Assembly (NCBI GenBank): GCA_964504365.1
Contig: CAZDDW010000004.1
Coordinates: forward strand, 14,214 to 78,213
Source of the DNA: an uncultured Gammaproteobacteria bacterium
GTDB lineage: Bacteria > Patescibacteriota > Patescibacteriia > UBA9934 > CAZDDW01
DNA: 64,000 nucleotides
Direction: 5' to 3'
Both the position numbers and the translations under genes were made by a program. The notes under the pieces are model-generated. The model was given only the letters and a program-made list of their open reading frames with translations. It did no database searches and was not told the origin of the DNA. Of the stretch, positions 25,520-54,595 are shown piece by piece; the first letter of the stretch is position 1; every line of letters begins with the position of its first letter.

Positions 25520-25545
25520 GACCCCTGATACAACAGTGTCAGGGG
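25520..25545 (-). terminator. intrinsic terminator after DGQHR gene (CCCCTGA/TCAGGGG stem + TCTTTTTATT)
   Basis: minus strand cccctcaCCCCTGAcactgttgtaTCAGGGGtctttttattgaca. Confidence 0.7.
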
Positions 25546-25559
25546 TGAGGGGTTGGAGG

Positions 25560-26732: not shown

Positions 26733-26790
26733 CGGGCATCACCAGCGTGCCCACACTGAAGAGAATTAACTTAACAGAATAAGCTTATCC

Positions 26791-26830
26791 TGTCAAGTAA
26801 CTGTATAAAAAAAGACCCGAGATTCGGGTC
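26791..26830 (-). terminator. terminator hairpin GACCCGA/TCGGGTC + T7, followed by TTGACA-N17-TAAGTT promoter for the DGQHR gene
   Basis: minus strand ccacttGACCCGAatcTCGGGTCtttttttatacagttacTTGACAggataagcttattctgtTAAGTT. Confidence 0.55.
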
Positions 26831-27203
26831 AAGTGGAATTATCCTGTTGATCAAGGAACTGACGAAGACTGGCTTCATCAGAATGGTCTTGACGTAGCCG
26901 GTCAAGGAAGGAGCCCAGAGTATCGCCTTGCTTGGCGGTCTGTTGGTAAACTTCCAGTATACGAGGCAGGTGACGCTGCAAATCTCCAAGCGGCAGAAGC
27001 TTCTTGGGCTCTGGTTTGCCAACATCCAAAGCTCTTCGCACTTTGGCTGCGAGCCGCTTTTTTATCTCAGGCAGGCGGTCAAGGATTTCCAAAGTACTTT
27101 TGTCGTCCTTGTCCAGGAATTGGCAAAAGGTTCCAGGCTTTCCCGCATCTACCCAGTCTTCGAAAGATTGTTCGATGCGGGGTATGATCAGGTCAGCTAA
27201 CAA
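26829..27203 (-). CDS. hypothetical protein (124 aa), island 2
   Basis: GC-rich ORF, 11 nt downstream of previous ORF stop; no recognisable domain. Confidence 0.4.
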   Translation of the reverse strand: MLADLIIPRIEQSFEDWVDAGKPGTFCQFLDKDDKSTLEILDRLPEIKKRLAAKVRRALDVGKPEPKKLLPLGDLQRHLPRILEVYQQTAKQGDTLGSFLDRLRQDHSDEASLRQFLDQQDNST

Positions 27204-27213
27204 ATTCCACCTC

Positions 27214-27822
27214 TCAGGAGTCCAGCCAGGCCCTGAGCTCGGCTTCGGTTGGGTGGTCTGTGGCTATACGACTGAGGTAATTGTCGAAGCTTTCGTCAGG
27301 AGTTGCCTCTTCGGTGAACCTTGTTGTGATTTGTCCCAGATACTGCTGAAGCACACTGCTTGGAAGTTGTTCTGCTGCTGCCGGCTTTTCCGCAGGCATA
27401 CCACTTGAAGCAACGGTTCCAGGGCTGAGAATACCATCGACCTGCAGCTCCAGGCCGCTACTGTCGGTTTCTTTGATTCGGCCGGTAAGACCATGCTCAT
27501 CGAAACCAAGCACCGTTGACACCCGACCTGCTCCACGTATCTCCTGGTCATCGAACTTGATCCCCTTGATCAAGACACAGCCGCCACTGACCCCTTGGTC
27601 AAGTGCAACAACCAAGAACAGGAACGAGTTTCGCGAACGAGCTACGTACACCTCACCAGGTCGCATTTCCAGCACTGGTTTGTAGATACCAGTGTCGTTA
27701 TCGCTTCGGCGATAAGGAACGGTCTGGGTAATGGTCACCATTCGCCCGTCAGGCAAGGAAAGGGTCAGTCCACGCAAGGTTGTTACCAACTCTTGTACGT
27801 CTTGGGTAAAGATCGAGGTCAT
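27214..27822 (-). CDS. hypothetical protein (202 aa), island 2
   Basis: GC-rich ORF with own TTGACA-N17-TATGGT promoter downstream of helicase terminator; no recognisable domain. Confidence 0.45.
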   Translation of the reverse strand: MTSIFTQDVQELVTTLRGLTLSLPDGRMVTITQTVPYRRSDNDTGIYKPVLEMRPGEVYVARSRNSFLFLVVALDQGVSGGCVLIKGIKFDDQEIRGAGRVSTVLGFDEHGLTGRIKETDSSGLELQVDGILSPGTVASSGMPAEKPAAAEQLPSSVLQQYLGQITTRFTEEATPDESFDNYLSRIATDHPTEAELRAWLDS

Positions 27823-27925
27823 GACTTCATCTCCTTTATGAAGGTAATTACCATATCAGACAACAAAGAGGCTGTCAAACCATATCGTTTGTGTTTACTT
27901 ATTAAAAAAGAGGCACTCAAGTGCC

Positions 27926-30900
27926 TCAAGTTGTTAGAGCAATTGCCCCACGGCTGGCCAGCTTTTGCAAAGTGCGCCAATCATGAGCAAAAAGGTCTAG
28001 TGCAGCCTGGTCTGGCGTCAAAGGTCCTGTGTCCGGACGAGCACCCCATCGTTGGAATTCTCTAAGGATGGTCCTTTTAACTGCCTCGTTATCCAAGACA
28101 GTGCCAGATCGACTGGCTAGCGGGTTGACCACTTCGAAGTCGTTATAGACAACTGTGCTTTGGTTACCAGGCTCAGGTCCTTTTCCTTTGCCGTTACGAA
28201 CGTTGATGTTTCGGGCAAGCTCAAAGGTAAAACGGAAAGCCTCATGGTCTGTAAACCGCGGCTTGTTTCCGTTTAGCGAGAACAGAATGGACCAGAAAGC
28301 AAACTTGGGCTTTGTTTTGTGGCCCTCTCCCTTTGGTACGATCAGACCAGAAAGAGGTAGTACATCACAACCCTCGCTGCGTAAGGCACTTACCCAACAC
28401 TCATAAAGCGTTTCATCAAGAGCCTGTCGGTTAAAGGTCAACCAGATCAAGCCGTATGATTCAGTAACGCGGACGAGTTCACGTAGAATCCGAATGCGCT
28501 CTGGCTCTTGTTGGTCTGCTTCCAGATTGGTCCAATCAATAGCCAAAGAACTTACAGTCAATCGGAACCTGTCTGTCCAATCACTGGGTAGCTGAGAAAG
28601 GCGTCCAACCTCAGCATTAGTGCCTTGGTGTGGGGAAAGGGTTCTGCCAAGATCAACGATCGTTGGGTTGATGTCAATCCCGTAGATCGGTTGGTCAAGG
28701 TAGCGTTCCATGGTCAATGGGCCACAGCCAGCATCAAAGATCAGTTCTGGGCGATCCAGGATCCCTGCTGGGATCAATCCACTGGTTAGCGACCGGGTCA
28801 TGAAACGGGCTATGTGCCCGGAAGCTCCAAAGTCCTGAACTTGGACAAAGCTTCTGGCAAATATCTCCGCATTGGTCCGTATGCCAAACTCGGTTGACAG
28901 TCGACGAATGACGCCGTCCTCACCAGCACCGCGCATGTCAGAGGCGATGAGGTTGACATGGTCGGTTGGAGAGCGGGTTAGGCGCTTTAGTCGAGTACTG
29001 TTGGGAGTAGTGTATTCGTTCCACTCCTCTTCAGTCGGTGGAACACGAGCCCTGAAACGAACCAAGTGTTCCCACTTGCGCTTGACCAGCTCATAGCGAC
29101 TCTCATCAGCAGTATCAACAATGTTGTCGTCTCCGACAAGCACTAGTGACAAGTACTCCACAGGCACAGTCAGACCTTCTCTCCAGAAACGACCAAGGAA
29201 CTGTTTCCAAGGCAACCATCCCTGGGCATAGGCGATCACCTTTACCCCTTGGACAGTTGGGTCGTTTCTGACCAGGACAGACAGGTTGATGCTGTCCGGA
29301 CAGGTCTTCATAGAAACCAGCAGGATCCTGGCACGTGGGTCAGTTCGCCAGCGAGCGATCAAAGAATCTCTCGCGTGACTACCAACGCCAACACTGCCAT
29401 CGAGCAACAAAACAGCTTCGTCGCCGTACCACTCCTTCAAGAGCTTGCCAACCCACACCCCGTCATCATCACCTTTGTAGGGCTGGGTTACCCCCTGGAC
29501 ATAAACGCCGGTAGCAACCACCACCTTATGGTTGTGGAGGCATTCGTCTAGCTGTCTTTTTAGCCAGACAAGCTTGGTTGACAGTCGCCAGTCGCTGAAA
29601 CGCTCAGCCATCTCGTCAGGCCAGTCGTAGGCAGTGTTTCCAGTCAGCACGTGCGGCATGTCCGCTGCATGAAGCAGGTGACGCACCTTGGCACTGGCAT
29701 CGATTCCAATTCCGTTACCATTTCCATTCTCTTGCTCAAGGTCAGGTTCGTGATCCTGAACAAAGCGGTACAACTCAGCATGATCCGGATTCATTTCAAG
29801 TGGCACTGGCCCGAACAGGTCCTCCCACGGCTGTGGGTTGATTGTTGGCAGGTCGCGCACCTCTTGAAGTTCTATGTCCAGGATACAGGTCCCGAAGATG
29901 GCTCGGAGCAAGCGGGGGCTGGCAAACACACCAGAACTGACAAACCGTTCTGGGTCTGGGAACAGGTCTGGTCTCAAGATCGTGGCCAAAGCAGCGCACT
30001 CAACAGGAGAATTCTCCCAAGGAGTTACTGAAAGGGCCAAAACCTTTTTCAGACGTGCCTCAGCACCCTTAATGATCGTCAGACAAGCAAGGGCTCGTTG
30101 TGCCGCGCTTTTTCCAAGGACATTTTTTCCGTATTGACACTCATCCCAAATCACACCATCGAAAGCCAGTTTGCTAAGAGCACTGACAATTTCAGGCCTG
30201 GTAAGGTTTGAATAGCCAACAACGATAAATCTGGCATTCCTTGGAATAAAGGCAACATCACGAATGCCTCGAATTACATGTACCACACCAGGCCGCCTAG
30301 CCCAGGGGAAGTAAATCTTTAGCTCGTTTTCCCAGTTGTCTCGAGCGCCAGGCGCACAAAAGACCAGGGTCTGTTGACAGCCAGCCTGAAGAACGTCAAG
30401 GGCCGCGTAACTGGTTTTGTACGTACCAGTATCTCCAATGTTGAGAACTCGCGACTCGTCTTTGGAACGAGCCAGCCACCAGCGCACATGAAGAGCTGGG
30501 AACATCCGGCTGTTGATCGTTTCGATCGTGTCCGGATAGGTCGTGGTCAAAAGGGCTTCGATGCGTTCGTGAGCGATTTGCCACACCTTACGTTCGTAGT
30601 CGTTGTTTGCTGCGGCCCGCTCTTCTCTTACGAAGTCATGGCCCAAATCAACGTCACGACTGAACCAGTAAAGCAACTCGCGTATACGACAATCAACATC
30701 CAGATCCAGAACCTCGGTTGGAATTCCTTTGATGATTTCCGGGTCGATCACTACCTTGGCGCCTGAATCGGTGCGGTTGGTGTTGAGTGGTCGTACCGTA
30801 ACCACACCCAGATTGGCCCGAAGTTTCATGTCTGCTTGGAGCTTGAGCACCAGGCGCGTCATCCATTCCACGTCTCCGTAGAAGAATTCAGGACAAACAC

Positions 30901-31147
30901 GGACAATCGCGTGAGCCAGGGCTTCGGGGAATGCTTCGAACCGTTCCCAGATAAAACGAAGTAAATCGTTTTTGTTGATTTGCTCAGCAAACAACGACGA
31001 CTTGTTTTCTACAACCTCAGCCAAACACTGATCAAGGTCCTTATCAGTCAGGTCACCACGTTGGTGGAGGAAGCGCAGGAATTCGTACTTCTTCTCGTTC
31101 TCTGGCATTTTGGCTAGCAGCGATACTATTTGTTGATGACTAAGCAT
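27926..31147 (-). CDS. SNF2-family helicase/ATPase fused to C-terminal class-I SAM-dependent methyltransferase domain, island 2
   Basis: helicase motifs IGDTGTYKT (I), VIWDECQYGKN (II), ALSVTPWEN (III), LLVSMKTCPDSINL and QGWLPWKQFLGRFWREG (V/VI); MTase motif I LIFDAGCGPL and IYGIDINP; start set at ATG 31147 (GGAGAGG SD) since the ORF-track GTG at 31240 lies inside the terminator/-35 element. Confidence 0.7.
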   Translation of the reverse strand: MLSHQQIVSLLAKMPENEKKYEFLRFLHQRGDLTDKDLDQCLAEVVENKSSLFAEQINKNDLLRFIWERFEAFPEALAHAIVRVCPEFFYGDVEWMTRLVLKLQADMKLRANLGVVTVRPLNTNRTDSGAKVVIDPEIIKGIPTEVLDLDVDCRIRELLYWFSRDVDLGHDFVREERAAANNDYERKVWQIAHERIEALLTTTYPDTIETINSRMFPALHVRWWLARSKDESRVLNIGDTGTYKTSYAALDVLQAGCQQTLVFCAPGARDNWENELKIYFPWARRPGVVHVIRGIRDVAFIPRNARFIVVGYSNLTRPEIVSALSKLAFDGVIWDECQYGKNVLGKSAAQRALACLTIIKGAEARLKKVLALSVTPWENSPVECAALATILRPDLFPDPERFVSSGVFASPRLLRAIFGTCILDIELQEVRDLPTINPQPWEDLFGPVPLEMNPDHAELYRFVQDHEPDLEQENGNGNGIGIDASAKVRHLLHAADMPHVLTGNTAYDWPDEMAERFSDWRLSTKLVWLKRQLDECLHNHKVVVATGVYVQGVTQPYKGDDDGVWVGKLLKEWYGDEAVLLLDGSVGVGSHARDSLIARWRTDPRARILLVSMKTCPDSINLSVLVRNDPTVQGVKVIAYAQGWLPWKQFLGRFWREGLTVPVEYLSLVLVGDDNIVDTADESRYELVKRKWEHLVRFRARVPPTEEEWNEYTTPNSTRLKRLTRSPTDHVNLIASDMRGAGEDGVIRRLSTEFGIRTNAEIFARSFVQVQDFGASGHIARFMTRSLTSGLIPAGILDRPELIFDAGCGPLTMERYLDQPIYGIDINPTIVDLGRTLSPHQGTNAEVGRLSQLPSDWTDRFRLTVSSLAIDWTNLEADQQEPERIRILRELVRVTESYGLIWLTFNRQALDETLYECWVSALRSEGCDVLPLSGLIVPKGEGHKTKPKFAFWSILFSLNGNKPRFTDHEAFRFTFELARNINVRNGKGKGPEPGNQSTVVYNDFEVVNPLASRSGTVLDNEAVKRTILREFQRWGARPDTGPLTPDQAALDLFAHDWRTLQKLASRGAIALTT

Positions 31148-31224
31148 CAAACCTCTCCGTTCCTTGTATTGCACAAGAAAATATTGAAAAGACCAAGGGA
31201 CCTTTTTAACAGATATAAGCCAAA

Positions 31225-31258
31225 TTGTCAATAAAAACACCCATCCAAGTGGATGGGT
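31225..31258 (-). terminator. intrinsic terminator after sigma-factor gene (ACCCATCC/GGATGGGT + GTTTTTATTGACAA)
   Basis: minus strand ctctaaACCCATCCacttGGATGGGTgtttttattgacaa. Confidence 0.65.
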
Positions 31259-32527
31259 TTAGAGTTCTGTTTCTTGGTTGACAATGGTGTGCAGGTCGCT
31301 GAACCACTGGCCTGGTGGCGCAACCTGATCATCGAGCTCGATTATTGCTTGGCCTCCACCATTGCAATAACTGAATCGGCAGAATTGAGCAGCTCCTGTC
31401 ACCAGTATGGTTTTTTCTTCTTTGTCTATCTTATCAGAGAACAGTAGTCCACAAGCAACTAGTTTCTGATAAAAAGCTTGACCCAGTTGATCCCTGATAC
31501 CAGATACACCATATTCGGCATCGGCTACATGCAATAGTGTTGCGGCTTGAGCGAGGCTGACAGAAATCTCCCAGAACACGGGTGCAGACCCGTTATTTTC
31601 TAGAGGCCGCCTGTCAACGTCTTGTATATCATCCAACTCATCTAGGCTGTTGGCACCTAAGTCAACCAACGCCTGTTTCATTTTATCTTTGGCTCTGATT
31701 TCGAGCTGTCTTATTCTTTCGCGACTGATACCTAGAGATTTTCCAAGTACTCGTAGCGACACTTTTTGCTCTAGGTAGCGGTGCTCAATAATGAAGCGTT
31801 CTCTTTCACTCAAGACGCCCAAAGCCAGTTCGGCTAATGCACGTTGATGCTCATTTTCCCGTGTAGAATCAACAGAATCTTCAGGTGAAGGGGTGTCTTC
31901 ATCTTCCAGCAGATCGATGAACATTACCTCAGAGTCATCCGAGGCTTTGTTGTGCAACGAAAGATCCTGGCCACTTAGACGCATGTCCATTTCGCGCACT
32001 ACTTTTTCATCTACACCGAGCTCGACGGCTATCAAAGACAGGCGCTCGTCTCCTGTTAGATCCAGATTTTTGTACTCTACCTTAGCCCGGGCTCGTCCGA
32101 GCCCACTGAAAACCTTTCTCTGTTTTTGGGTGGTTCCCATGCGGACTTGAGATCGGCTTCTGAGAATGAATTCCTTTATTTCGGCCTTCATCCAGTACTT
32201 GGCGTAGCCCAAGAACCTGACACCGCGGTCTGGATCAAAGCGCGTAATGGCTCGACATATACCAATCAAGGCCTGTTGAAGCAGTTCTTCCGCAGGAACA
32301 TGCCTGTTTGCATAACGCTTTGATAATTTAACAGCGTATTTGATATTTGCATCAACCAGGGCTGAGACAGCCTCTTTGTCTCCTGATTTGGCCAGGGCAA
32401 CCAGATCAAGTTCTTCATTTCGTTTAAGAATACGTACGGTTGGATTGCTAAGGTGCTTTGTTATGATCGGGGACAGGTCTGGTCTTTTGACATAACCCAA
32501 TCTATTCTCCCTTTCAGGTCGGAGCAT
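31259..32527 (-). CDS. sigma-70 family RNA polymerase sigma factor, RpoH (sigma-32)-like, with about 130-aa C-terminal extension of unknown function
   Basis: region 2 FLGYAKYWMKAEIKEFILRSR; RpoH-box-like MGTTQKQRKVFSGLGRA; region 4.2 HTH LGISRERIRQLEIRAKDKM; GC-rich. Confidence 0.75.
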   Translation of the reverse strand: MLRPERENRLGYVKRPDLSPIITKHLSNPTVRILKRNEELDLVALAKSGDKEAVSALVDANIKYAVKLSKRYANRHVPAEELLQQALIGICRAITRFDPDRGVRFLGYAKYWMKAEIKEFILRSRSQVRMGTTQKQRKVFSGLGRARAKVEYKNLDLTGDERLSLIAVELGVDEKVVREMDMRLSGQDLSLHNKASDDSEVMFIDLLEDEDTPSPEDSVDSTRENEHQRALAELALGVLSERERFIIEHRYLEQKVSLRVLGKSLGISRERIRQLEIRAKDKMKQALVDLGANSLDELDDIQDVDRRPLENNGSAPVFWEISVSLAQAATLLHVADAEYGVSGIRDQLGQAFYQKLVACGLLFSDKIDKEEKTILVTGAAQFCRFSYCNGGGQAIIELDDQVAPPGQWFSDLHTIVNQETEL

Positions 32528-32544
32528 AACTTGCTATATCGTTT

Positions 32545-32590
32545 TTGTCAATCAAAAAGCGGGGTCAAGGGACCCCGCCTATTCTATATT
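32545..32590 (-). terminator. intrinsic terminator after hppA (GCGGGGTC/GACCCCGC + CTTTTTGATTGACA)
   Basis: minus strand aggcGGGGTCccttGACCCCgctttttgattgacaaaaac. Confidence 0.65.
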
Positions 32591-37250: not shown

Positions 37251-37650
37251 TATGGCCCAGAAGAAACCAAAACAATCTTGCCCGGACTGCAAGGCTCGAG
37301 TTCGAGAACTTCAAGAACAATGCAAGGGCTGTGGGTTTAATATTATTGTTGAACCAAAAGAAGCAGCCCGCGCCAGATATCTGCGCGGCCCATCACTTGG
37401 GGCCTTGTTTTTTACTCAGGGCTGGACACTTGGTTCACGACAATATCTCTGGTTCATTGCTTCGCTGATTCCGGTTGTTGGTATTGCTGCCTTGATTATC
37501 TGCACCCTGTTTGGCCGCCGTTTGGCTTGGAAGTTTGGTGGCTGGGGGTCTTGGGAGGAATATCATCAACGGATGAAATTGCTTGATATCGTTGGTGTGG
37601 TTTGGATTTTAATTCTAATTAGTGCCTATTTAATAGCACGTTACTTATGA
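37240..37650 (+). CDS. hypothetical zinc-ribbon membrane protein
   Basis: N-terminal CPDCKARV...CKGCGF zinc ribbon followed by about 3 TM helices. Confidence 0.45.
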   Translation: MIINMAQKKPKQSCPDCKARVRELQEQCKGCGFNIIVEPKEAARARYLRGPSLGALFFTQGWTLGSRQYLWFIASLIPVVGIAALIICTLFGRRLAWKFGGWGSWEEYHQRMKLLDIVGVVWILILISAYLIARYL

Positions 37651-38654
37651 CTTATTTAATAGTTATTGTTCTGATCATGATGTCGGCCCTGTTTTCTGGG
37701 TTGACCCTAGGTTTCTTTAGTTTGAATAAAGACGACCTTGGTCGTAAAGCGGAGCTTGGTGACAAACAGGCCAAAAAGGTGTACAGCGTGCGCAAGAATG
37801 GGAATCTGCTCCTTTGTACATTGTTGATTGGTAACGTTGCAGTGAACTCTGTCCTGGCCATCTTTTTAGGATCGATTGCCTCTGGTGTTGCTGCTGGATT
37901 ACTGGCCACTGGATTGATTGTTATCTTTGGCGAAATTGTTCCGCAAGCCGCATTTTCTCGATATGCGCTAGCTCTGGGATCAAGGTTGGTTTGGTTGGTT
38001 CGAATTTTCTTAATCATTTTGTTCCCTATATGTTGGCCTTTGGCCTGGATCTTGGACAAGGTCCTTGGCGACGAGTTGGATACTGTTTATTCTAAACGTG
38101 AATTGATCAAAATGATTGAAAAACACGAGGATTTGTCTGAGAGTGAGATTGATGAGGACGAAGAAAGAATTATTAAGGGCGGGCTTTCATATTCTGAAAA
38201 GACTGCACAGGACATCATGACTCCACGTGTGGAAATGGTGGCCCTGAAGAAAGAACAAAGGCTTGATAAAAAAACTTTGGCCAAGGTTGTTGCCACTGGT
38301 CATTCCCGCATTCCTATTTATAAGGAGCGGATGGATAATGTGATTGGAATTTTGTATGTTAAAGATTTGATTGGTGTTGATTTGAAAAATAAGACAGCTG
38401 GATCTCTAGCCCGCAAAAATACTATCTTTGTTGATTCGTTGGCGTTCCTGGATAATCTGCTTGAAGATTTCAAACGAACTCGAAATCACTTGTTTGTTGT
38501 AATAGATAAATATAACAGTGTTGTTGGTGTAGTCACTATTGAAGACGTGCTCGAAGAAATTATTGGTGCAGAGATTGTTGATGAGTTTGATGACAGGGTC
38601 GATTTACAAGAGCAGGCCAAAAAGAAGGCCAAGAAAAGAACCAGAAAATCTTAG
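37647..38654 (+). CDS. CNNM/DUF21-CBS domain transporter-associated protein (CorB/HlyC-like, lacking CorC C-domain)
   Basis: N-terminal 4-TM DUF21 region, then tandem CBS pair (MTPRVEMVALK..., VIGILYVKDLIG...); 335 aa. Confidence 0.8.
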   Translation: MTYLIVIVLIMMSALFSGLTLGFFSLNKDDLGRKAELGDKQAKKVYSVRKNGNLLLCTLLIGNVAVNSVLAIFLGSIASGVAAGLLATGLIVIFGEIVPQAAFSRYALALGSRLVWLVRIFLIILFPICWPLAWILDKVLGDELDTVYSKRELIKMIEKHEDLSESEIDEDEERIIKGGLSYSEKTAQDIMTPRVEMVALKKEQRLDKKTLAKVVATGHSRIPIYKERMDNVIGILYVKDLIGVDLKNKTAGSLARKNTIFVDSLAFLDNLLEDFKRTRNHLFVVIDKYNSVVGVVTIEDVLEEIIGAEIVDEFDDRVDLQEQAKKKAKKRTRKS

Positions 38655-38669
38655 ATGTTTGAAAGAAAT

Positions 38670-38700
38670 AAAAGCACCCGCTGTGAAGCGGGTGTTTGAG
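38670..38700. terminator. bidirectional intrinsic terminator (CACCCGC/GCGGGTG) between convergent CNNM gene and island-3 ORF
   Basis: aaaaGCACCCGCtgtgaaGCGGGTGtttgag. Confidence 0.6.
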
Positions 38701-38701
38701 T

Positions 38702-39805
38702 TTAACTGGTCAGAAGACAGCGGAACGGCTCGTCTTCTCCCAGGCGTGGTGGGTGTATGGCCGCTCCTTCACTAGACAGGACCCAGCGAGCACCCATTCG
38801 ATGTGAGACCCCCATGCTGGTGTATGCTGGCCGTTGGCGTTGGTGTACCTCAAGCATGGGCAGGAAGTTGAAGATCTCAATGTTGATCTGGGCGCTGGTC
38901 TTCTTGTCGCGCAACCGGTCATGGACACTGTCCCAGATCACTGTGGGAATACGCAACTGCCAGGCCCCGAGCAGGCGACGCTCTCTACGGTCCATTCCCT
39001 TGAGAACATCTTTCTGCTCTCCGGGGAACAGGTAGGCCATTTCTCCGGTCCGGCGACCGTTCATTGGTTTTTTCCCTGGTGCGTATGTCTCGATGAACGA
39101 GCCAGGAACCAAGTTCAGCTCCCTGGTGTGCTGCCTGTTGGCTGCCACGTGGAGCGGAATACCGCCAGGCAGGTCGAACTTGGCCAGGATGTCAGCCCCA
39201 TGACTGGAAAGCAGGACATCATCAGCACCAACGCTACCCGGACGGTTGTAGTCGGATCTGAAACGCTGAAGGATCGTTGGGTAGTACTTGAGGAGGAATT
39301 CCGTTTGTGCGTACAACCACGGCACGCGTTCAAGAATTTCGGGCTTGTCCGGGGTTATACCCTCTTCTCTGTACTCGATATGGTCGAAGAGAACACGGGT
39401 TTCTTCGACCCGCATGATCCACTCAAGCAGGATCCAGGTGTAGTCCGCGTTGGGTATGACTATAGTCAGAGGTGTGGTCTGTTCGATCGGCACGGTTTCG
39501 CCGGTGAACAAGAAGTTCGGTTCCCGTAGGGAGCGCAAGAGCTCTTCGACCGCCGTCTGCTGCCCATCTCGATGCAGCTTGGCCAGCATGGTCAACAGAA
39601 CCCGGCCGTCACTTACCAGTTTGTCCCAGCGTCGCAAAGCTTCGCTGGGCGAGCCGGTTTGCTCAAGCAAGAACTTGTACAAACCAACCAGACCTCTGGC
39701 ACGGCCCCGCAACCGGGCAAACACCTGGTTCCCAACCAGCTGTTCGCGCAACGCGGCGATTTGGGTTTCTCTTAAAAGGGCTTCGTTGTTCTTGTCTTCA
39801 GGCAC
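38702..39805 (-). CDS. hypothetical protein (367 aa), GC-rich island 3
   Basis: long ORF in about 57% GC DNA; no recognisable domain. Confidence 0.45.
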   Translation of the reverse strand: MPEDKNNEALLRETQIAALREQLVGNQVFARLRGRARGLVGLYKFLLEQTGSPSEALRRWDKLVSDGRVLLTMLAKLHRDGQQTAVEELLRSLREPNFLFTGETVPIEQTTPLTIVIPNADYTWILLEWIMRVEETRVLFDHIEYREEGITPDKPEILERVPWLYAQTEFLLKYYPTILQRFRSDYNRPGSVGADDVLLSSHGADILAKFDLPGGIPLHVAANRQHTRELNLVPGSFIETYAPGKKPMNGRRTGEMAYLFPGEQKDVLKGMDRRERRLLGAWQLRIPTVIWDSVHDRLRDKKTSAQINIEIFNFLPMLEVHQRQRPAYTSMGVSHRMGARWVLSSEGAAIHPPRLGEDEPFRCLLTS

Positions 39806-39918
39806 TGCTCTTCTCCTTGAGCCATCTGAAGCAGTATCTCCTGGGAGGTACCAAGGTTCGGTCAGCGACCGGTTGTCTCCTGGGAGGCAACGTATCGATC
39901 TTGCCGGAAAATGTTAGA

Positions 39919-39959
39919 TTTGTCAATAAAAAGACCCGACAACAAGTGTCGGGCGAGGT
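39919..39959 (-). terminator. terminator/-35 cassette copy A (CCCGACA/TGTCGGG hairpin + TCTTTTTATTGACAA)
   Basis: ttgtcaataaaaagacccgacaacaagtgtcgggcgaggtt; 40/41 identical to 41166-41206. Confidence 0.7.
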
Positions 39960-39966
39960 TGTTCGA

Positions 39967-41034
39967 TCAGCCGGTGGCAGCTGCGGGCTTGCGTCGGATT
40001 TTGATCAGACGGCTTCGATCCAGTCCGTGAAGTTCCGGGTCGGTCTCTCCGCGGTTGAACCGCTCTAGCACGAGCACCAGCTCGTCGTGTAGCCTTTTGT
40101 CGCGCTGAGATGTCTTGAACTCCGGGCCGAGATAGGCGACCAATTCCTTGATCACGGATTGCAGGAAGCTGGCCCGGTCCACTTCCTTGCCCCACTCAGT
40201 GTCTGCGTGTTCGGTCTGTTTGGTGAACAGGTCGACCAGGTCGCCGTGGGGTCGTAGTCGGACGATCTCTTCGAGCAGATCAAGTCCGTTGGAAGAGATG
40301 CCACCTTCGCCCAAGATCTCCCGGGCGCCACTGTCAGAGACCAGCCAGAACTGCATCCGCATCTGGTCCATGCTCACTTCACGATCGCGAGTGATCTCCA
40401 GATGCCAGCCCATGTTGCCGAGCTCTCGTCCCAACGAGAGTTTTTGTTCCCAGCGTTGGAATGGACAAGCCGGGAAGCGAGAGAGTTCGGTTGTTCCTTC
40501 GGGCGTATTCTCGATCACGTCCAGGCACATCAGGAGCTGTTCGTTCTCTTTCATGCGCACGAGCATATAGGTTTGGTGTCTTAGAACCCAGACCTCTTTC
40601 ACTCGGACGATAGCCAGGATCAGGCGAGCCACCAAGGCGAGACCGATCAGAGCACAGACAAGGATCTGTCGGTACTGATCTACGTTCGGTCCTAGGGTCA
40701 ACGGTTCCGTGATGGCATAAAAACACCAAGCAAGACCAAAAGCCAGAAGTGCGAAGGCCACCACCATGCCAATAAAGATCGTTAGCATGAAGAGTACGAC
40801 GCACATCCACTGGATCCAGAAGAGGAACCCCTTGACCTTTTTGGAAAAGGCCTGGATCCACTTTGGGGAATCCGAGGTGTCCCAGTCGATCCTCTTGATC
40901 GGGTTGGCTCGGCGAAGCCCGCGGACAAGCTTGACCGCACCTCGCCAAAGGGTTTGCTCGAAGCCGAAAGCGATCCAGAAGACCAGTCGCTCCGGCAGGA
41001 GGGAGATGAACTCCCAGGAAAAGAACCACCGCAT
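39967..41034 (-). CDS. hypothetical membrane protein (355 aa; 2-3 TM + cytoplasmic domain), GC-rich island 3
   Basis: ORF with own TTGACA-N17-TAATCT promoter; TM segments FLFWIQWMCVVLFMLTIFIGMVVAFALLAFGLAW; no recognisable domain. Confidence 0.45.
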   Translation of the reverse strand: MRWFFSWEFISLLPERLVFWIAFGFEQTLWRGAVKLVRGLRRANPIKRIDWDTSDSPKWIQAFSKKVKGFLFWIQWMCVVLFMLTIFIGMVVAFALLAFGLAWCFYAITEPLTLGPNVDQYRQILVCALIGLALVARLILAIVRVKEVWVLRHQTYMLVRMKENEQLLMCLDVIENTPEGTTELSRFPACPFQRWEQKLSLGRELGNMGWHLEITRDREVSMDQMRMQFWLVSDSGAREILGEGGISSNGLDLLEEIVRLRPHGDLVDLFTKQTEHADTEWGKEVDRASFLQSVIKELVAYLGPEFKTSQRDKRLHDELVLVLERFNRGETDPELHGLDRSRLIKIRRKPAAATG

Positions 41035-41165
41035 GATTTACCTCCAAGGCCACGCAGTCTCGCCACCAAGCACCCGTTCGGGCATCACCAACACGAACTA
41101 CCGTGCGGATCTAGCTTAGACTTGACTGAAATCATGGAGGGTTAGATTATCATCGTGCCCACGGC

Positions 41166-41206
41166 TTGTCAATAAAAAGACCCGACAACAAGTGTCGGGT
41201 GAGGTG
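41166..41206 (-). terminator. terminator/-35 cassette copy B, then -10 TAATCT 17 nt downstream of TTGACA
   Basis: ttgtcaataaaaagacccgacaacaagtgtcgggtgaggtg; minus strand ...tctttttaTTGACAagccgtgggcacgatgaTAATCT. Confidence 0.7.
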
Positions 41207-42244
41207 TTAGGACCAGTGCCGCTCTGGTACGTAGAACTGCATCAGTTCCTCGATGATTTTTGGGTCACTATCGATGATTTCCAGGCCACGCTGACTTGGA
41301 AATTCCTGGTGGGCTTTTTGGAAGGCCTGGATGACCCGTTCGGGTGTGGGTTCACCACCAGGCCAGCATAGTTGGTTGTGGACTCTGAAAAGCCGGAACT
41401 CAGGGTGCTCGCCCCGGTCGACATGCACGTAGTGGCCAGCCGCCAATCGTTTCAGCTCCTCGTTGGTTGCTCCAGGGATGTGCCAGTAGAGGTTGCTTGA
41501 CCAGTAGGCTGCTTGTCCCAGCCTGCCGTGGGCCCACTCAGGCACCGGGTCTCCCCCTGCGAATAGTGGTTTGAATCCATGAAAGCGCAGGAACCATTCG
41601 ATTGGCGAGGGCCAGTACCGAAGGGCAGGGCCAGTACCACTGTTTGGGATTGGGGTGAAATCATTCCAGTAAGGGGTGAAACGGAAACTGTGGATTGCTG
41701 CCGCACCAAGGACCAGGCTGGTCGGGTAGGCGTCATGGGCAATGCTCCACAAAATCAGTCGCGGTGGATGTTTCTGGTCAAGGGTGTTACGCACCGGCTG
41801 GTTGAGAAGAGCTCTCCCAGCTCTGGTTTGGTCGTGTGGAAGGGGCAGGGTGATGACGATCCGCCCTTCTACGATTTCCAAGAGGTCATTGTCTCTGAGG
41901 CGTCCAATCCATTTGCGGAACATGTCCAGCTGAGGGTGTTCTCCGATTGGGCACGATGCTGATTCCCGAATCCAGGTATCCGGATCGAGTTGAAGGATGT
42001 CGTTGAGCACGATCTGAAACCCAGTCACCTTGTCCGGGCAAACGTGAATGACTCGGCGCAGTCCGGCAAGCCAGTCAGCAAACACGGTCGTGTCACCGGC
42101 CTCAGCCCTCGGGACCACTTGGTTGTTCCACATGTCATTGAACAGCTTGTTGAGGTGGTCAAGGCCGCGCTCGGCAGCGCGCATGATTTTACGATCGAAA
42201 CTACGTAGATTACTTCGATCCCATTTGTCACTTTGTCTACTCAT
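41207..42244 (-). CDS. hypothetical protein (345 aa), GC-rich island 3
   Basis: ORF in about 57% GC DNA, Trp/His-rich; no recognisable domain. Confidence 0.45.
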   Translation of the reverse strand: MSRQSDKWDRSNLRSFDRKIMRAAERGLDHLNKLFNDMWNNQVVPRAEAGDTTVFADWLAGLRRVIHVCPDKVTGFQIVLNDILQLDPDTWIRESASCPIGEHPQLDMFRKWIGRLRDNDLLEIVEGRIVITLPLPHDQTRAGRALLNQPVRNTLDQKHPPRLILWSIAHDAYPTSLVLGAAAIHSFRFTPYWNDFTPIPNSGTGPALRYWPSPIEWFLRFHGFKPLFAGGDPVPEWAHGRLGQAAYWSSNLYWHIPGATNEELKRLAAGHYVHVDRGEHPEFRLFRVHNQLCWPGGEPTPERVIQAFQKAHQEFPSQRGLEIIDSDPKIIEELMQFYVPERHWS

Positions 42245-42317
42245 TGGAAAGTTCTCCGGCTCATACCCGATGAATTCAGGTCGTGATGAGCACAGTCATC
42301 TCATCATTTATGCTTGC

Positions 42318-42356
42318 TTTTGTCAAAATAAAAACCCTGCTGATTACTCAGTAGGG
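42318..42356 (-). terminator. terminator after ABC exporter (ACCCTGCTGA/TCAGTAGGGT + TTTTTATTTTGACA)
   Basis: minus strand aaaACCCTACTGAgtaaTCAGCAGGGTttttattttgacaaaagc. Confidence 0.6.
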
Positions 42357-42358
42357 TT

Positions 42359-44089
42359 TTAGTGTCCGTTCTGGGCGCTAGCCAGGTCGTGGTACAGGCC
42401 GCCATGATTGAAGAGTTGTTTGTGCGTTCCCTCTTCAACAATCTTGCCCTTGTCCAAGACGATAATGCGGTCCGCATTTTGGATCGTGCTCAGACGGTGG
42501 GCGATCAGGATCATGGTTCGGCTGCCTTGCAGCTTAGTGATCGACTCATGGATCAGCTGCTCTGACAATGGATCCAGGTGGGACGTGGCTTCATCAAAGA
42601 TGAGCACGGCTGGGTCGGCGAGAATCGCGCGGGCAATACCCACGCGCTGCCGCTGTCCACCAGAAAGTTTAAGACCGCGCTCACCAACAAAGGTGTCGTA
42701 TCCCTTTTCCAACTGCTCGACAAATTCGTCTACGTTGGCAATCTCAGCTGCCCGACGAATTTCACCCATGGTTGCTTTCGGGTTTCCGTAAGCAATGTTC
42801 TCGGCTACAGTAGAATCAAAGATTTCTACTTCCTGCGGCACGATGGCGATGTGGCTGCGATAGGATGCGAGATTTAGATCACATACATCGTGTCCGTCAA
42901 TCGACACCTGTCCGCTACACACGTCATAGAACCGAGGGATCAGGCGGGCCAGAGTACTCTTGCCTCCACCAGATGGTCCACAAACACCAATGGTTTCTCC
43001 GGCAGCGACATCTAGATCAACTCCGTGCAGACCATTGTTAGTATTTGGGTAACAGAAGTGCACGTTGTCGAAAGCAATACGCCCTTCAGGTGAACGCAGT
43101 TTTTTGGCTGTTGGTTTGGAAGTGATCTCTGTTGGCTCATTCAAGATGTCTGATAGTCGCTCCACGCTTTCTCCTGCATCAACGATACGTTCATACAGAT
43201 GAGAAAAGACGTGTAGACTGTCAAAGAGCTTGTTTGACAACAGGAGTAGGAAGACCAATGTTCCCACAGTGATACTATCTTGAGTTAACTGATATACAGC
43301 AACACCGAGAATGGCTACACGACCAAGATTTACAACACCAGCCTGATACCAGTCGAAGTTAATCATGGTGTACCACTCTTTCAGCTCATCGCCGAAGATC
43401 AATTTTTTCAGCTTGCCAAAGGTGCTGTATTCTCTCGGCTCTTGAGTGAAGGACTGGACACTTTGGACGTTCAGCACCGCCTGAGTCATCATGTGATCTG
43501 CCTTTTCGTAGCGGTCAAAGCGCAGTTGACGCATTGGGCGGATGGTTTTGTCTAGTCTGAATACCGAGTACAGGTAGACAGTAACAACAACCATAAAAAT
43601 TGGTGCGACCTGCCAATCCATGATCAGGAAGATGCCGAAGATGAGAACCATTTCAAACAATACGGGGGAAACATCAAAGAAACACATAATAATGATTTCT
43701 ATTGCCTTCCAAGTGCCTCGGGTTATCTTGCCCATTTTGGCCCCGGTGTTTTCACGGACGTGGTATCCATATGACAGCTCAAGCAGCTTTTTCATACAGC
43801 GCTTTGGAAGATCTCTTTCCAAAATCAAGCTTGTCTTGAAAATGTTTTTGTACTTGATGTTATTCAGTCCAGTAATAATGAACTGAAGTGCCAACATGGT
43901 TGCTGTCAGGATCCAGATCATTTGGACCGACCCCTCGTTCCAGTTTTGGAACTCATCCAGGATCAGCTTGAAGATGTAAGGTCCGATCAGCAGGAAGACC
44001 TGAACAATTCCAATCCAAACGAAAGTGGTAACAATATTTCGTTTGTATGGTTTGATCAATTGCCAGTACTTGCTCCAGAATTCGAACAT
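42359..44089 (-). CDS. ABC transporter, fused permease/ATP-binding protein (MsbA/exporter family)
   Basis: 6-TM N-domain; Walker A GPSGGGKST, signature LSGGQRQRVGIARAIL, Walker B LIFDEATSHLD, H-loop. Confidence 0.9.
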   Translation of the reverse strand: MFEFWSKYWQLIKPYKRNIVTTFVWIGIVQVFLLIGPYIFKLILDEFQNWNEGSVQMIWILTATMLALQFIITGLNNIKYKNIFKTSLILERDLPKRCMKKLLELSYGYHVRENTGAKMGKITRGTWKAIEIIIMCFFDVSPVLFEMVLIFGIFLIMDWQVAPIFMVVVTVYLYSVFRLDKTIRPMRQLRFDRYEKADHMMTQAVLNVQSVQSFTQEPREYSTFGKLKKLIFGDELKEWYTMINFDWYQAGVVNLGRVAILGVAVYQLTQDSITVGTLVFLLLLSNKLFDSLHVFSHLYERIVDAGESVERLSDILNEPTEITSKPTAKKLRSPEGRIAFDNVHFCYPNTNNGLHGVDLDVAAGETIGVCGPSGGGKSTLARLIPRFYDVCSGQVSIDGHDVCDLNLASYRSHIAIVPQEVEIFDSTVAENIAYGNPKATMGEIRRAAEIANVDEFVEQLEKGYDTFVGERGLKLSGGQRQRVGIARAILADPAVLIFDEATSHLDPLSEQLIHESITKLQGSRTMILIAHRLSTIQNADRIIVLDKGKIVEEGTHKQLFNHGGLYHDLASAQNGH

Positions 44090-52068: not shown

Positions 52069-53316
52069 CTAGAGGCGCATCGGTCCATTCGGACCGATGA
52101 TGATCGGGCCACCCTCACCCGGGCCGCCGAATCCGGCGAGAGCCTCGGCCAGTTCCGGGGGCATGGAGCCGAGCGCCTCGGCCATGCCAGCGGACATGTC
52201 ACCACCCAATCGGGCTTCCCAGGTCTTGCGGGCCTCGGCCGGAGCCTCGGCGTAGCGTTGCTCTTGGTCATCCTTGTCCAGGGCCATGTCGATGGTCAGC
52301 ATCTGCTGCAGGGCGTGGATGCCCTGTTCTGGCGAAAAGCCGTAGCGCTCCATGAGATCCATGATCATCAGGAGGCCATTGATCACGTTCTCCAGTCGCT
52401 TGCCATTGCCGTGGCTGATGGAGCCGTGCGGCAGCGGGTAGCAGTTTTCGGCCAGGCACTGCTCGAAGCCGAATCCCTCGCCGTCGAAGCCTTCGGGAAG
52501 CTGGAACTCGCGCACGGCTGCCATCAGCACCGCGGTATCCGCGGGCATGGTGACCTTGGTCAAGTCTTCGCGCAGCGGCGCGATCATCTCGTCGCCGAGC
52601 GCCTTGGTCAAGGTGACCAGGTTCCGTTCGGCCTGAGCACCTGTTATCGAGCCGTAGCTCTGGTCGCCGATGAGGATCTGGACGCGACTGAAGCCGACCA
52701 GGCTCAGCAGCGGATCCTTGATGGCCTCCAGGCGCGGCGCGCTCATGGCGGCCTGTTCGCGCAGGTGTGCGTTGAGCGTGTCCGTCCGCTGCCGCTCCTC
52801 CGCGGCCTTGCGGCGGTCCTGCAGCGCATGCGCATCCAGGGCCAGGTCTGCGGCCATGAGCAGCTTGAAGCCGTGGATGCTCTGCTCGGGCGAGATCACG
52901 CCACCCTCGGCCGCCTCGGCCAGCTGTAGCCAGGCCGTGCTCAGGTGCTCGACCGGGATGCGGCCGCCGGGATGGTCCAGGAGACCGTGAGGGATCGGGT
53001 TGCTGCAGTCGCATGGGATGAAGTCGAAGCCTTTGCCATCGAAGCTGTCGGGTAGCTCGATCGCGTTCAGAGCCAGAGCTACTGCTGTGGCGTCTGCGGC
53101 CAAACCGTCGAAGTTGTCGACGGTCGCGCGCGCCTCGGTCAGCATCTCGGTGGTGACGTTGAACTGCGTCATGTGTTCCTCGACTTCGTCCAGGATCGCG
53201 TGCGCTTCGACCTTGTGCGCACCCTTGGCACTGTCACCGGGCACCAACACGACCAGGCGCTTCAGCCCGGCCAACTTGAACATCGGGTCGTTCCCGATCG
53301 TTTCGATTCTCAGCAT
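52069..53316 (-). CDS. hypothetical protein (415 aa) with internal tandem duplication, GC-rich island 4
   Basis: about 65% GC ORF; two homologous halves (LPDSFDGKGFDFIPCDCSNPIPHGLLDHPGG...EQSIHGFKLLMAADLALD vs LPEGFDGEGFGFEQCLAENCYPLPHGSISHGNG...EQGIHALQQMLTIDMALD); Gly/Pro-rich C-terminus. Confidence 0.5.
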   Translation of the reverse strand: MLRIETIGNDPMFKLAGLKRLVVLVPGDSAKGAHKVEAHAILDEVEEHMTQFNVTTEMLTEARATVDNFDGLAADATAVALALNAIELPDSFDGKGFDFIPCDCSNPIPHGLLDHPGGRIPVEHLSTAWLQLAEAAEGGVISPEQSIHGFKLLMAADLALDAHALQDRRKAAEERQRTDTLNAHLREQAAMSAPRLEAIKDPLLSLVGFSRVQILIGDQSYGSITGAQAERNLVTLTKALGDEMIAPLREDLTKVTMPADTAVLMAAVREFQLPEGFDGEGFGFEQCLAENCYPLPHGSISHGNGKRLENVINGLLMIMDLMERYGFSPEQGIHALQQMLTIDMALDKDDQEQRYAEAPAEARKTWEARLGGDMSAGMAEALGSMPPELAEALAGFGGPGEGGPIIIGPNGPMRL

Positions 53317-53526: not shown

Positions 53527-53603
53527 TGGTACACCCGGTAGGACTCGAACCTACAACCTTGAGGTTAGAACCCTCCTGCTCTATCCGGTTGAGCTACGGG
53601 TGC
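53527..53603 (-). tRNA. tRNA-Arg (anticodon TCT), CCA encoded
   Basis: rc GCACCCGTAGCTCAACCGGATAGAGC...GGAGGGTTCTAACCTCA...GTAGGTTCGAGTCCTACCGGGTGTACCA; anticodon loop GTTCTAA (one non-WC pair at base of anticodon stem). Confidence 0.65.
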
Positions 53604-53638
53604 TTGGGTGGCAAAGATACCACTTTTTAGCCTAATTG

Positions 53639-54595
53639 TCAACCTTTCTTCCTGCCTTTGCCGTGAAATTTCTTGTGAATCGTTTTAAGCTGTTTATCCG
53701 TAATATGAGTGTAAATTTGAGTGGTGGTGATTGATGCGTGACCAAGCAGGTCTTGGACAGCTCGCACGTCAGCTCCAGCCATAAGCATGTCAGTAGCAAA
53801 GGTGTGGCGTAAGGTGTGTGGGGTGATCCGTTTGGTGATTCCTGCATCTTTTGCGTAGCGTTGAACTAGGCGTTCGATTGACCGAGGGGTTAGTGGACCA
53901 GATTCTTTGCGGCCCTTTTTTGCTCGGTCGTGTGAAACAAATAAGTATGCTGAGGTGTCAGCCCGCTTTGTTAGGTATTGCTTAACCCACTTCTTAGCCT
54001 CGTCTGACAAAAAGACCACTCGTGGCTTGTCACCCTTCCCACGAACCGTAAATTCGTCACGTTTTAGATTGACTTGCTCGATTTTTAAATTGGCCAGCTC
54101 TGATACACGCAGCCCGGTAGAGAACAACAGTTCTATAATAGCTCGATCGCGCAACTGAACTACAGACCAACCACCAGCTTCCATGTCCTTGCGACGATGT
54201 TTGTTCATTGGCGCGTTGAGTAATCGTTCTAGTTCGTCGTCTTCCAAGAACTCGACCGTACGCACCGGTTGTTTGGCTAGCTCGATCTGTTCCGGGGCCA
54301 GGCTTTGAATGTCACGTTTAGATAAGTATTTCAAAAAAGCACGCAAAGCAATCAAATGATAATTCTGCGTGTTCTTTTTTAGGTTTTCACCAGCGCGTCC
54401 TGGTAACGAACGATTCAGCCATAAACGATATTTACGAACCGATTCTTTTGTAATTTGTTTCGGTGTTGGATTTTTGGCCCACTCTGAAAAACGGCGTAAA
54501 TAAAAATCATAATTACGAATCGTCTTAGGTGAACGACCCTTTTCGATTTCAAGATGTTCGAGAAATTCAGTGATCAGTTTATTTGTGTTCGCCAT
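53639..54595 (-). CDS. XerC/XerD-family tyrosine site-specific recombinase
   Basis: N-terminal core-binding domain (FLEHLEIEKGRSPKTIRNYDFYLRRF), catalytic R...HxxR...Y (LGHASITTTQIYTHI); 318 aa. Confidence 0.85.
   Translation of the reverse strand: MANTNKLITEFLEHLEIEKGRSPKTIRNYDFYLRRFSEWAKNPTPKQITKESVRKYRLWLNRSLPGRAGENLKKNTQNYHLIALRAFLKYLSKRDIQSLAPEQIELAKQPVRTVEFLEDDELERLLNAPMNKHRRKDMEAGGWSVVQLRDRAIIELLFSTGLRVSELANLKIEQVNLKRDEFTVRGKGDKPRVVFLSDEAKKWVKQYLTKRADTSAYLFVSHDRAKKGRKESGPLTPRSIERLVQRYAKDAGITKRITPHTLRHTFATDMLMAGADVRAVQDLLGHASITTTQIYTHITDKQLKTIHKKFHGKGRKKG

Follow-up and report, generated by a model that had tools for sequence, protein, structure and literature searches.

The stretch of DNA examined here (hereafter the window: 64,000 nucleotides of contig CAZDDW010000004.1, placed in the Patescibacteriota) carries, between an ATP-binding cassette (ABC) transporter gene and a gene of an uncharacterised family that we call A, a cassette of 40 nt that occurs twice and brackets a single gene, B. 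The genes around this repeat are all encoded on the minus strand, and each copy of the cassette reaches from behind the stop codon of one gene into the predicted promoter of the next. Read in the direction of transcription, the locus is made up of the following features.

42359-44089, minus strand: ABC transporter gene.
41207-42244, minus strand: gene C, an ORFan of 345 aa, with a G+C content at third codon positions (GC3) of 0.62.
41166-41205, minus strand: cassette copy 2, after the stop codon of C (41207-41209), with the flank ACCTCA, the stem-loop at 41181-41199, the T-tract at 41173-41180 and TTGACA at 41167-41172.
41144-41172, minus strand: predicted promoter of gene B (TTGACA, 17 nt, TAATCT).
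39967-41034, minus strand: gene B, 355 aa, GC3 0.70, with a predicted helical N-terminal region.
39920-39959, minus strand: cassette copy 1, after the stop codon of B (39967-39969), with the flank ACCTCG, the stem-loop at 39935-39953, the T-tract TCTTTTTA at 39927-39934 and TTGACA at 39921-39926; it has a positional orthologue in the related contig L129.
39898-39926, minus strand: predicted promoter of gene A (TTGACA, 17 nt, CAAGAT).
38702-39805, minus strand: gene A, 367 aa, GC3 0.67, a member of a large uncharacterised family.

The repeat is real, and it is a duplicated junction between a terminator and a -35 element. The window has exactly two occurrences of the 40-mer (on the plus strand TTGTCAATAAAAAGACCCGACAACAAGTGTCGGG(C/T)GAGGT), one at 39920-39959 and one at 41166-41205, and a shuffle test (n = 100) expects none. 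In register the two copies are identical at 39 of 40 positions and the adjacent bases differ on each side; a looser resemblance, with one indel, continues for about 10 nt beyond the 40-mer, as far as the B and C stop codons (51 nt, 88%). The copies, sited after the stops of the ORFan C and of gene B, are 1246 bp apart, and the count of two clear copies covers about 73 kb of genome. An earlier note on this DNA had described a 41-bp duplication with 40 of 41 positions identical; the repeat exists as it said, but the first copy starts at 39920 and not at 39919, and the motif string given there was a plus-strand reading, the functional reading being the reverse complement since the genes lie on the minus strand. 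At least seven separate metagenome assemblies (including JGI 3300009374 and 3300009375, and ENA SCRA20-1 and SUTE22-1) hold both copies with the same flanks, and this recurrence in independent assemblies means that the repeat is not an assembly artefact. The eight strain-level contigs (99.6-100% identical) show one arrangement throughout; variants without B or C, empty sites and excised forms were not found among them. Two short contigs begin exactly at a copy (L004 at copy 2, L141 at copy 1), the expected effect of a repeated 40-mer on de Bruijn assembly.

On the minus strand each copy reads ACCTC(A/G)-CCCGACA-CTTGT-TGTCGGG-TCTTTTTA-TTGACA-A. As RNA this becomes a stem-loop, CCCGACA-CUUGU-UGUCGGG, with a U-tract, UCUUUUUA(UU), directly 3' of the stem in both copies; the stem has 8 bp (5 of them G-C pairs), the loop 5 nt, and the folding energies come to -12.8 kcal/mol for copy 1 and -12.5 kcal/mol for copy 2. 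The cassette starts 6-12 nt past the stop codon in both cases (coding strand), TTGACA follows the T-tract directly, and a 17-nt spacer leads on to TAATCT (before B) or CAAGAT (before A). The repeated unit runs from just past the stop codon to the end of the -35 element and no further, since what follows it in B and in A (spacer, -10 element and leader) is mutually unrelated, and the predicted transcript 3' end falls about 35-37 bp ahead of the next predicted start. It is thus well supported, by anatomy, phasing and the layout kept in relatives, that each copy is a composite signal in which a predicted intrinsic terminator is fused to the predicted -35 element of the next gene; on this point, that one element would serve both genes, sequence and comparison bear the earlier note out. 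A bidirectional terminator was considered and rejected, the plus strand having neither a T-tract after the hairpin nor a nearby plus-strand gene.

The promoter grammar of the window (TTGACA, 17 nt, TAnnnT) is canonical and strong: 20 of the 53 TTGACA hexamers are found in the non-coding 15% of the window (an enrichment of about 2.5-fold), TAnnnT stands exactly 17 nt downstream of 14 of these 20 intergenic sites, and the window itself encodes a sigma-70 protein that has regions 2 and 4. The string TTTTTATTGACA (with at most one mismatch) occurs 5 times against 0.76 expected, a number that none of 100 shuffles reached. Junctions that combine a terminator with TTGACA number about 13, and in 7 of them TTGACA comes 7-8 nt past the last G/C pair of the stem (TTGACA starts at 25513, 31231, 32551, 39926, 41172 and 42326 on the minus strand and at 58451 on the plus strand). 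The chance of 7 out of about 13 junctions sharing one offset is of the order of 1e-7 by a rough binomial estimate that assumes the offset to be uniform over about 60 nt; a further 5 junctions with TTGACA 7-8 nt after the stem were found in relatives. The eight related elements named in the earlier note all exist, on the minus strand, but the T-tract abuts TTGACA in only four of them (25508-25546, 31226-31258, 32546-32578 and 42321-42358), whereas in the other four (26796, 27878, 51987 and 11547) TTGACA follows 17-31 nt after the stem, as in ordinary terminator-then-promoter junctions; missing from that list was an abutting case on the plus strand, at 58425-58456 after polA. Its view that nearly every gene would be monocistronic fits the minus-strand block at about 24-44 kb and is overstated elsewhere, since 17 of the 48 co-directional junctions in the window have less than 30 nt between the genes and look operon-like.

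The genes that the cassette separates lie in a slot whose content differs between relatives, as follows.

Window: genes C and B between the ABC transporter gene and A; a CNNM gene after A.
Contig L128: ABC transporter 82% identical (aa), then B' (37% identical to B), then A'' (30% identical to A).
Contig L129: ABC transporter 95% identical (aa), then an unrelated ORFan of 125 aa, then A' (38% identical to A); a toxin-antitoxin pair replaces CNNM.
Contig P0015 (gene table only): a 433-aa gene in the slot; after A, a reverse-strand gene of 279 aa without Pfam match.

Variation begins right at the stop codon of the ABC transporter gene (the terminator hairpin of this gene itself differs between the window and L129) and homology picks up again at the hairpin upstream of the A promoter. 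Gene C is absent from L128 and L129, the P0015 gene table has the single 433-aa gene in its place, and no homologue of C outside its own cluster was found among 5.8 billion protein clusters; the sole homologue of B outside its own cluster is B' in L128. The contig L128 has no CNNM match and ends after an ORF fragment of 27 aa downstream of A''. In L129 a toxin-antitoxin-like pair (80 and 71 aa, at 2339-2800) stands in place of the CNNM/CBS gene downstream of A, a replacement which indicates gene turnover on both sides of A.

The junction itself is conserved across this turnover. At the position of copy 1, after its 125-aa gene, L129 has CCCGACACTCGTTGTCGGG followed by TTTTTT, i.e. the cassette hairpin with one loop difference, and the A promoter and leader downstream of it are the same as in the window. 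Between this first T-tract and TTGACA, L129 carries a 29-nt insertion (1088-1124) with a second hairpin and T-tract, and the second T-tract again abuts the -35 element, at 7 nt; from this insertion, the junction appears to accept hairpin units. In L128 the same position reads ACACCCGCCACGATGGTGGGTGT, CTTTTAG and TTGACA, which can be aligned with the cassette and contains a compensatory change from A-U to C-G, and the -10 block of the A promoter (CGGCAAGATCGA) is invariant across the three lineages. A stem, a T-tract of 7-8 nt and TTGACA are kept at every junction of these relatives, as well as at a site in the metagenome-assembled genome (MAG) nzgw371, including junctions whose hairpin sequence or adjoining gene is a different one. 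Pairing is maintained across the orthologous stems (by compensation in L128, with only a loop change in L129), a comparison of three lineages with low power. The architecture is kept while the stem drifts or is replaced, which argues that it is the architecture that is selected, as one would expect of a terminator-promoter fusion.

As for the origin of the duplicate, both copies in the window have a T in the loop and the tract TCTTTTTATTGACA, states that are absent from the L129 orthologue, which has a C in the loop and the tract TTTTTTAA. Copy 1 has an orthologue in L129 and copy 2 follows gene C, which has no homologue, and hence copy 2 is taken as the derived one. A tandem gene duplication was rejected as the source of the repeat: A, B and C are unalike by blastp, tblastx and permissive blastn, and B and C do not match an A-family profile (hhalign probability below 1%). 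With the three genes mutually unrelated, the junction alone was copied and no gene was carried along. Copy 2 is best read as a recent duplicate of copy 1, made locally during gene turnover; the suggestion of the earlier note, recent copying or a recombination hotspot, pointed in the right direction, in that the slot genes vary by relative and the copies share states that the L129 orthologue lacks.

We reason that the terminator of the upstream gene and the -35 element of the downstream gene would be packed into one 40-nt unit on the minus strand, and that the two copies would bound single-gene modules, each with its own promoter, long leader, ORF and terminator, in a hypervariable slot between the conserved ABC transporter gene and gene A. 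We infer that transcripts end and start at these copies. The copy upstream of the A promoter would be the older, and the copy downstream of C a later local copy that could have arisen by either of two routes: a module may have been inserted by recombination at the T-tract/TTGACA junction, or gene conversion may later have taken place between junctions 1.25 kb apart. Taken as a whole (a composite signal, locally copied in a slot of gene turnover) this account is in our judgement the probable one. Some points weigh against it. The -10 element of the A promoter, CAAGAT, is weak and matches the consensus at 3 of 6 positions; the cassette hairpins are moderately stable only (z of about -2.3 to -2.6 relative to shuffles); the direction of copying rests on a single close relative (L129) and on parsimony; and a history in which it was B that entered, between C and A, is equally parsimonious. 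What the duplication marks is gene turnover in a hypervariable slot, and the general design around it is the known tight packing of genes.

A bolder extension, which we regard as rather unlikely, would make the stop-to-(-35) junction, beyond its role in packing, a handle by which self-contained single-gene modules are inserted, duplicated and swapped in the accessory-gene slots of Patescibacteria through T-tract/TTGACA microhomology, i.e. a cassette system independent of an integrase. The mechanism would be recombination or template switching at this microhomology, the 40-mer pair and the L129 hairpin would be its footprints, and the leader of A would be a new class of cis-regulatory RNA riding on one family of modules.

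Among the explanations that depart from a locally copied composite signal, we weighed whether the cassette could belong to a dispersed family of mobile palindromes, similar to repetitive extragenic palindromic (REP) sequences or to miniature inverted-repeat transposable elements (MITEs), the two copies then being two insertions. Several observations lend themselves to this: a near-identical 3' half (TGTCGGGTCTTTTTATTGACA) with the same 5' arm CCCGACACTT is found in nzgw371 at a non-orthologous site, upstream of its H+-pyrophosphatase (H+-PPase) gene; the junction after a DGQHR-domain gene in the window has the 17-mer GGGTCTTTTTATTGACA and the flank CCTCACCC in common with the cassette; CCGAC...GTCGG stems occur in several other terminators; and the extra hairpin and T-tract of L129 were placed exactly between T-tract and TTGACA. 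Yet clear copies number only two in about 73 kb, and a covariance model built on the four clear hairpins gave no significant hit besides these in 87 kb from this lineage (the hairpin at 25519 scores about 8 bits, and those at 19148 and 44247 reach E of about 0.07 at best). A 21-mer matched one contig (that of nzgw371) among 185,579 species genomes, representatives outside which the source genome lies, and none among viral contigs; by our own estimate, a single 7-nt stem match could be due to chance, given the thousands of Patescibacteria genomes with T-tract/TTGACA junctions. Moreover, outside its stem the element has no terminal inverted repeats, it lacks a target-site duplication, and the window encodes neither a transposase nor a protein like a REP-associated tyrosine transposase (RAYT), and we consider a mobile family unlikely. 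A somewhat fainter prospect is that the palindrome would be a DNA operator through which a dimeric regulator controls the promoters of B and A together, its terminator look being secondary. An identical, perfect 7+7 palindrome does lie equidistant upstream of two adjacent promoters, with its centre near -53, and a recent preprint (Fletcher, Forrest, Cooper, Adams, Kapanidis & Grainger, bioRxiv 2026, 10.64898/2026.08.19.745784) reports terminators whose palindromes serve also as sites for transcription factors. What speaks against an operator is that the element always follows a stop codon and always comes with a T-tract, that its stem varies by compensatory substitution with no retention of the sequence as such, that two unrelated hairpins precede the two promoters in L128, and that in L129 the 29-nt insertion shifts the palindrome away from an A promoter which, together with its leader, is still conserved.

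The direct repeats around a single gene, in an array of unrelated accessory genes that share one orientation and differ among relatives, could also bring to mind integron-like sites or Xer sites of the dif-module kind, with gene B as a mobile cassette, and a gene for an Xer-type tyrosine recombinase lies 12 kb away, beside a tRNA and a GC-rich ORFan. This recombinase (53639-54595), the sole tyrosine recombinase in the window, is however XerA/XerC/XerD-like (250 bits against a XerA cut-off of 220) and stays far under the integron-integrase cut-offs (137 against 265 and 80 against 435). The hairpin is a perfect stem-loop of 19-21 nt without R/L boxes or extrahelical bases, whereas attC sites measure 55-140 nt; a promoter belongs to every module, which sets the modules apart from integron cassettes; the arms of 7-8 bp are rich in G+C and unlike the 11-bp half-sites of Xer; and the single arrangement of the eight strain-level contigs includes no empty or excised form. 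We hold site-specific recombination of this kind to be very improbable. Least probable is that the two copies resulted from convergent selection for an optimal terminator and -35 element, or from misassembly. Shared constraints (CCC...GGG clamps, CUUG loops, the T-tract and TTGACA) do account for part of the likeness among unrelated junctions, but the identity of 39 in 40 extends to the loop, to the 5' flank ACCTC, itself non-functional, and to the base that follows TTGACA, zero matches are expected by chance, and both copies stand between distinct flanks in at least seven assemblies; both possibilities are effectively refuted.

Other composites of the same design, in which the T-tract abuts the -35 element, are listed below.

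42298-42358, minus strand: composite after the ABC transporter gene and predicted promoter of C (terminator 42333-42358, TTGACA 42321-42326, 17 nt, TGAGAT).
32523-32578, minus strand: composite after the H+-pyrophosphatase gene and predicted promoter of the sigma-70 gene.
31203-31258, minus strand: composite after the sigma-70 gene.
25485-25546, minus strand: composite after the DGQHR gene and predicted trigger-factor promoter (hairpin, TCTTTTTA, TTGACA, 17 nt, TAAACT).
58425-58479, plus strand: composite after polA (hairpin, TTTTTGC, TTGACA, 17 nt, TATGTT).

The element after the DGQHR gene had looked like a third member of the cassette family in a significant pairwise alignment, a likeness that the covariance model did not support, and it is not counted here; a link between the cassette and GC-rich genes that had seemed to exist was dropped as well. 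CUUG/CTTG is found in the loops of many terminators in the window (27910-27927, 31239-31258, 32559-32578, 37387-37404, 39935-39953 and 41181-41199) and is a known stable tetraloop motif, and a CCGAC...GTCGG stem core recurs in several terminators, also at 19159, 36746 and 44272. These common loop and stem motifs may reflect a preference of the lineage in terminator design or a distant common ancestry. A metagenome scan with the 17-mer GGGTCTTTTTATTGACA, an unspecific pattern, returned at least 120 loci, which are mostly chance matches within coding sequences of unrelated organisms, and none of the loci listed comes from this lineage. About 15 unrelated metagenome contigs among the matches listed (L031, L033, L034, L076, L079, L088, L097, L104, L109, L112, L114, L120 and L127 included) have a hairpin ending in GGGTC, followed by TTTTTATTGACA and a good -10 element, which means that the layout with the T-tract before the -35 element is not unique to this lineage.

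The leaders of genes A and B adjoin the repeat and are not part of it, and they are the most novel items at the locus; together with the terminator of A they are described as follows.

41035-41143, minus strand: 5' leader of gene B, about 107 nt (counterpart in L128 at 1029-1130).
39806-39897, minus strand: 5' leader of gene A, with three hairpins, two of which have CUC-CCAG-GAG tips, followed by UUCAGA; the Shine-Dalgarno sequence lies in the loop of a fourth, small hairpin.
Homologues of the A leader: L129 1149-1252; L128 2280-2400; L142 3364-3475; L144 3894-4006; L147 2889-3009.
38675-38694, minus strand: terminator of gene A, CACCCGC-TTCACA-GCGGGTG plus CTTTTATTT, with orthologous hairpins in L128 and L129.

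The leader of A, of about 95 nt, starts downstream of the promoter predicted at copy 1, and recurs, in different organisms and quite different gene neighbourhoods, ahead of A-family genes with only about 30% identity: in L142/L143 (between topA and relA), in L144-L146 and in L147. Six such sequences align, with the three hairpins and the small one that presents the Shine-Dalgarno sequence. Compensatory changes affect 15 of 26 pairs, as against 7.8 +/- 1.9 in shuffled alignments (none of 500 shuffles scored as high) and 2-7 pairs in controls where the partner was slid by 1-3 columns. A covariance model recovered only these six in 746 kb, and Rfam gave tRNAs alone at gathering score in the window and nothing relevant at E up to 1 within 38600-42400. 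We therefore put the leader of A forward as a candidate for a new cis-regulatory RNA, on the strength of its covariation. The leader of B is 88% identical to its counterpart in L128 as against only 37% for protein B; the CAUGAUUU at its 5' end forms pairs with AAAUCAUG, which lies over the start codon, and two compensatory pairs are seen relative to L128. Conservation of this sequence starts at CATG, 7-8 nt past the -10 element, and a conserved upstream ORF of 16 codons, starting at the predicted transcription start, may be present in it. The proteins A and B diverge fast (30-38% identity), and the promoters and leaders are 86-88% identical between the lineages.

The A family comprises at least 251 clusters at 50% identity, with proteins of about 340-360 aa in which the N-terminal region of about 130 aa is conserved and the remainder variable; a profile search found no relative in the PDB, and ten diverse members had no Pfam domain. 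Neither A, nor B, nor C matched anything in Pfam, NCBIfam or PADLOC, and the AlphaFold models obtained from two-sequence alignments (pLDDT, i.e. predicted local distance difference test, of 43 and 50) were too poor to use. In L007, from the SCRA20-1 population, gene A (L007 1739-2832, corresponding to window 38702-39805) has an indel of about 10 bp and appears in the gene call as two ORFs, 109 and 237 aa long; it may be decaying in that population. The slot genes have GC3 values of 0.62-0.70, as compared with 0.3-0.45 in their housekeeping neighbours, and are similar in this to three other ORFan blocks; all four blocks (7184-11352, 25560-31240, 38702-42244 and 52069-53316) lie on the minus strand, are mostly without family match and span GC3 values of 0.50-0.84. 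As GC3 is raised in the homologues of A and B in relatives too, the slot genes are not simply a recent import. The related MAG nzgw371 is GC-rich throughout.

Beyond the locus, the window encodes dnaA, dnaN, polA, PBP1a, trigger factor, an H+-pyrophosphatase and PF18895 pilin paralogues of type IV secretion systems (T4SS), five of the latter in a row at 4733-7121 on the plus strand. An array of T4SS-pilin paralogues fits genomes of the candidate phyla radiation (CPR). The H+-PPase of nzgw371 is 64% identical to that of the window, and this MAG ('bacterium nzgw371') was called Patescibacteria in a 2025 paper (PMC12455944); on this footing the lineage of the window is taken to be Patescibacteria/CPR. 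The window corresponds, as reverse complement, to most of the JGI contig Ga0118720_1000314 (79,963 bp). At 25560-31240 (minus strand), the DGQHR-domain (DndB-like) protein is encoded next to two small ORFs and a protein of 1104 aa with faint Snf2/DpdE-like matches, a cluster that, by these matches, looks like one of the DNA-modification or defence type; the DGQHR gene is found upstream of the trigger-factor gene also in the TARA contig L136 (81% nucleotide identity). At 53527-54595 (minus strand), the single Xer-type recombinase gene adjoins tRNA-Arg(TCT) and the most GC-rich ORFan (52069-53316, GC3 0.84), a spot that could be an integration site.

To judge from the window, the host is a compact-genome bacterium, with at least 7 of its co-directional junctions in this maximally packed layout. 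Because the Patescibacteria (CPR) are uncultured, their transcription signals have hardly been characterised; the locus offers a clean case, backed by comparison, of promoters built as TTGACA, 17 nt and TAnnnT and of terminators fused to promoters. Junctions of this kind can be copied as units during the turnover of accessory genes, which bears on how new genes are insulated and expressed in streamlined genomes. Of greater value is a by-product, the leader RNA in front of a large uncharacterised protein family, which is conserved, shows covariation and is a candidate regulatory RNA.

As for known systems, promoter-coupled intrinsic terminators were described by Fletcher et al. (10.64898/2026.08.19.745784) as widespread between tandem genes across distant bacteria, in an arrangement that saves space and in which promoter-bound RNA polymerase is proposed to affect termination. 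In the main register of that preprint the transcript ends about 10 bp before the next start, with the -35 element in the stem DNA and the T-tract just before the -10 element; coupling is defined as an end within 35 bp of a start, and its effects are gone after the insertion of at least 35 bp. The organisms there are E. coli, B. subtilis, A. baumannii and several others, and no Patescibacteria are named in the parts read here. The junctions of the window are alike in that a terminator and the next promoter share one short intergenic stretch between tandem genes. They are unlike in that the T-tract precedes the -35 element, in that the predicted end-to-start distance of about 35-37 bp is at the edge of the 35-bp definition, and in that duplicated junctions are not treated in the preprint. 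A promoter in the register of Fletcher et al. can be drawn within the cassette (CCGACA, 18 nt, TATTGA), but its -10 element lacks the final T and matches the consensus poorly, and it was rejected; the promoter that is conserved lies downstream of the T-tract. Terminator-promoter coupling as a general principle is already known, and the register found here is different from the one lately reported as universal.

Integron cassettes with attC sites resemble the locus in their same-orientation, unrelated accessory genes, the similar hairpin-forming sites between them and the varying content, but no integron integrase is encoded in the window, the hairpin is shorter and more perfect than an attC site would be, and every gene comes with a promoter and a T-tract terminator of its own. 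REP sequences and bacterial interspersed mosaic elements (BIMEs) are likewise short, G+C-rich palindromes just past stop codons, and REPs can act on mRNA 3' ends and in recombination; they differ in occurring in hundreds of copies and without a fused -35 element, whereas here there are two clear copies in 73 kb and no RAYT gene. UP elements (of the E. coli rrnB P1 type) are A/T-rich DNA upstream of the -35 element that is contacted by the C-terminal domain of the RNA polymerase alpha subunit, and the consensus of their proximal subsite is A-rich on the non-template strand. The T-tract of the cassette fills this proximal position, directly upstream of the -35 element, but is T-rich on the non-template strand. 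The locus finally resembles the flank-conserved hypervariable slots that are exchanged by homologous recombination, with a conserved ABC transporter gene on one side and the promoter, leader and N-terminal region of A on the other; it is set apart from them by a right-hand boundary of variation that coincides with a terminator hairpin, and by the copying, as it appears, of this boundary element inside the slot.

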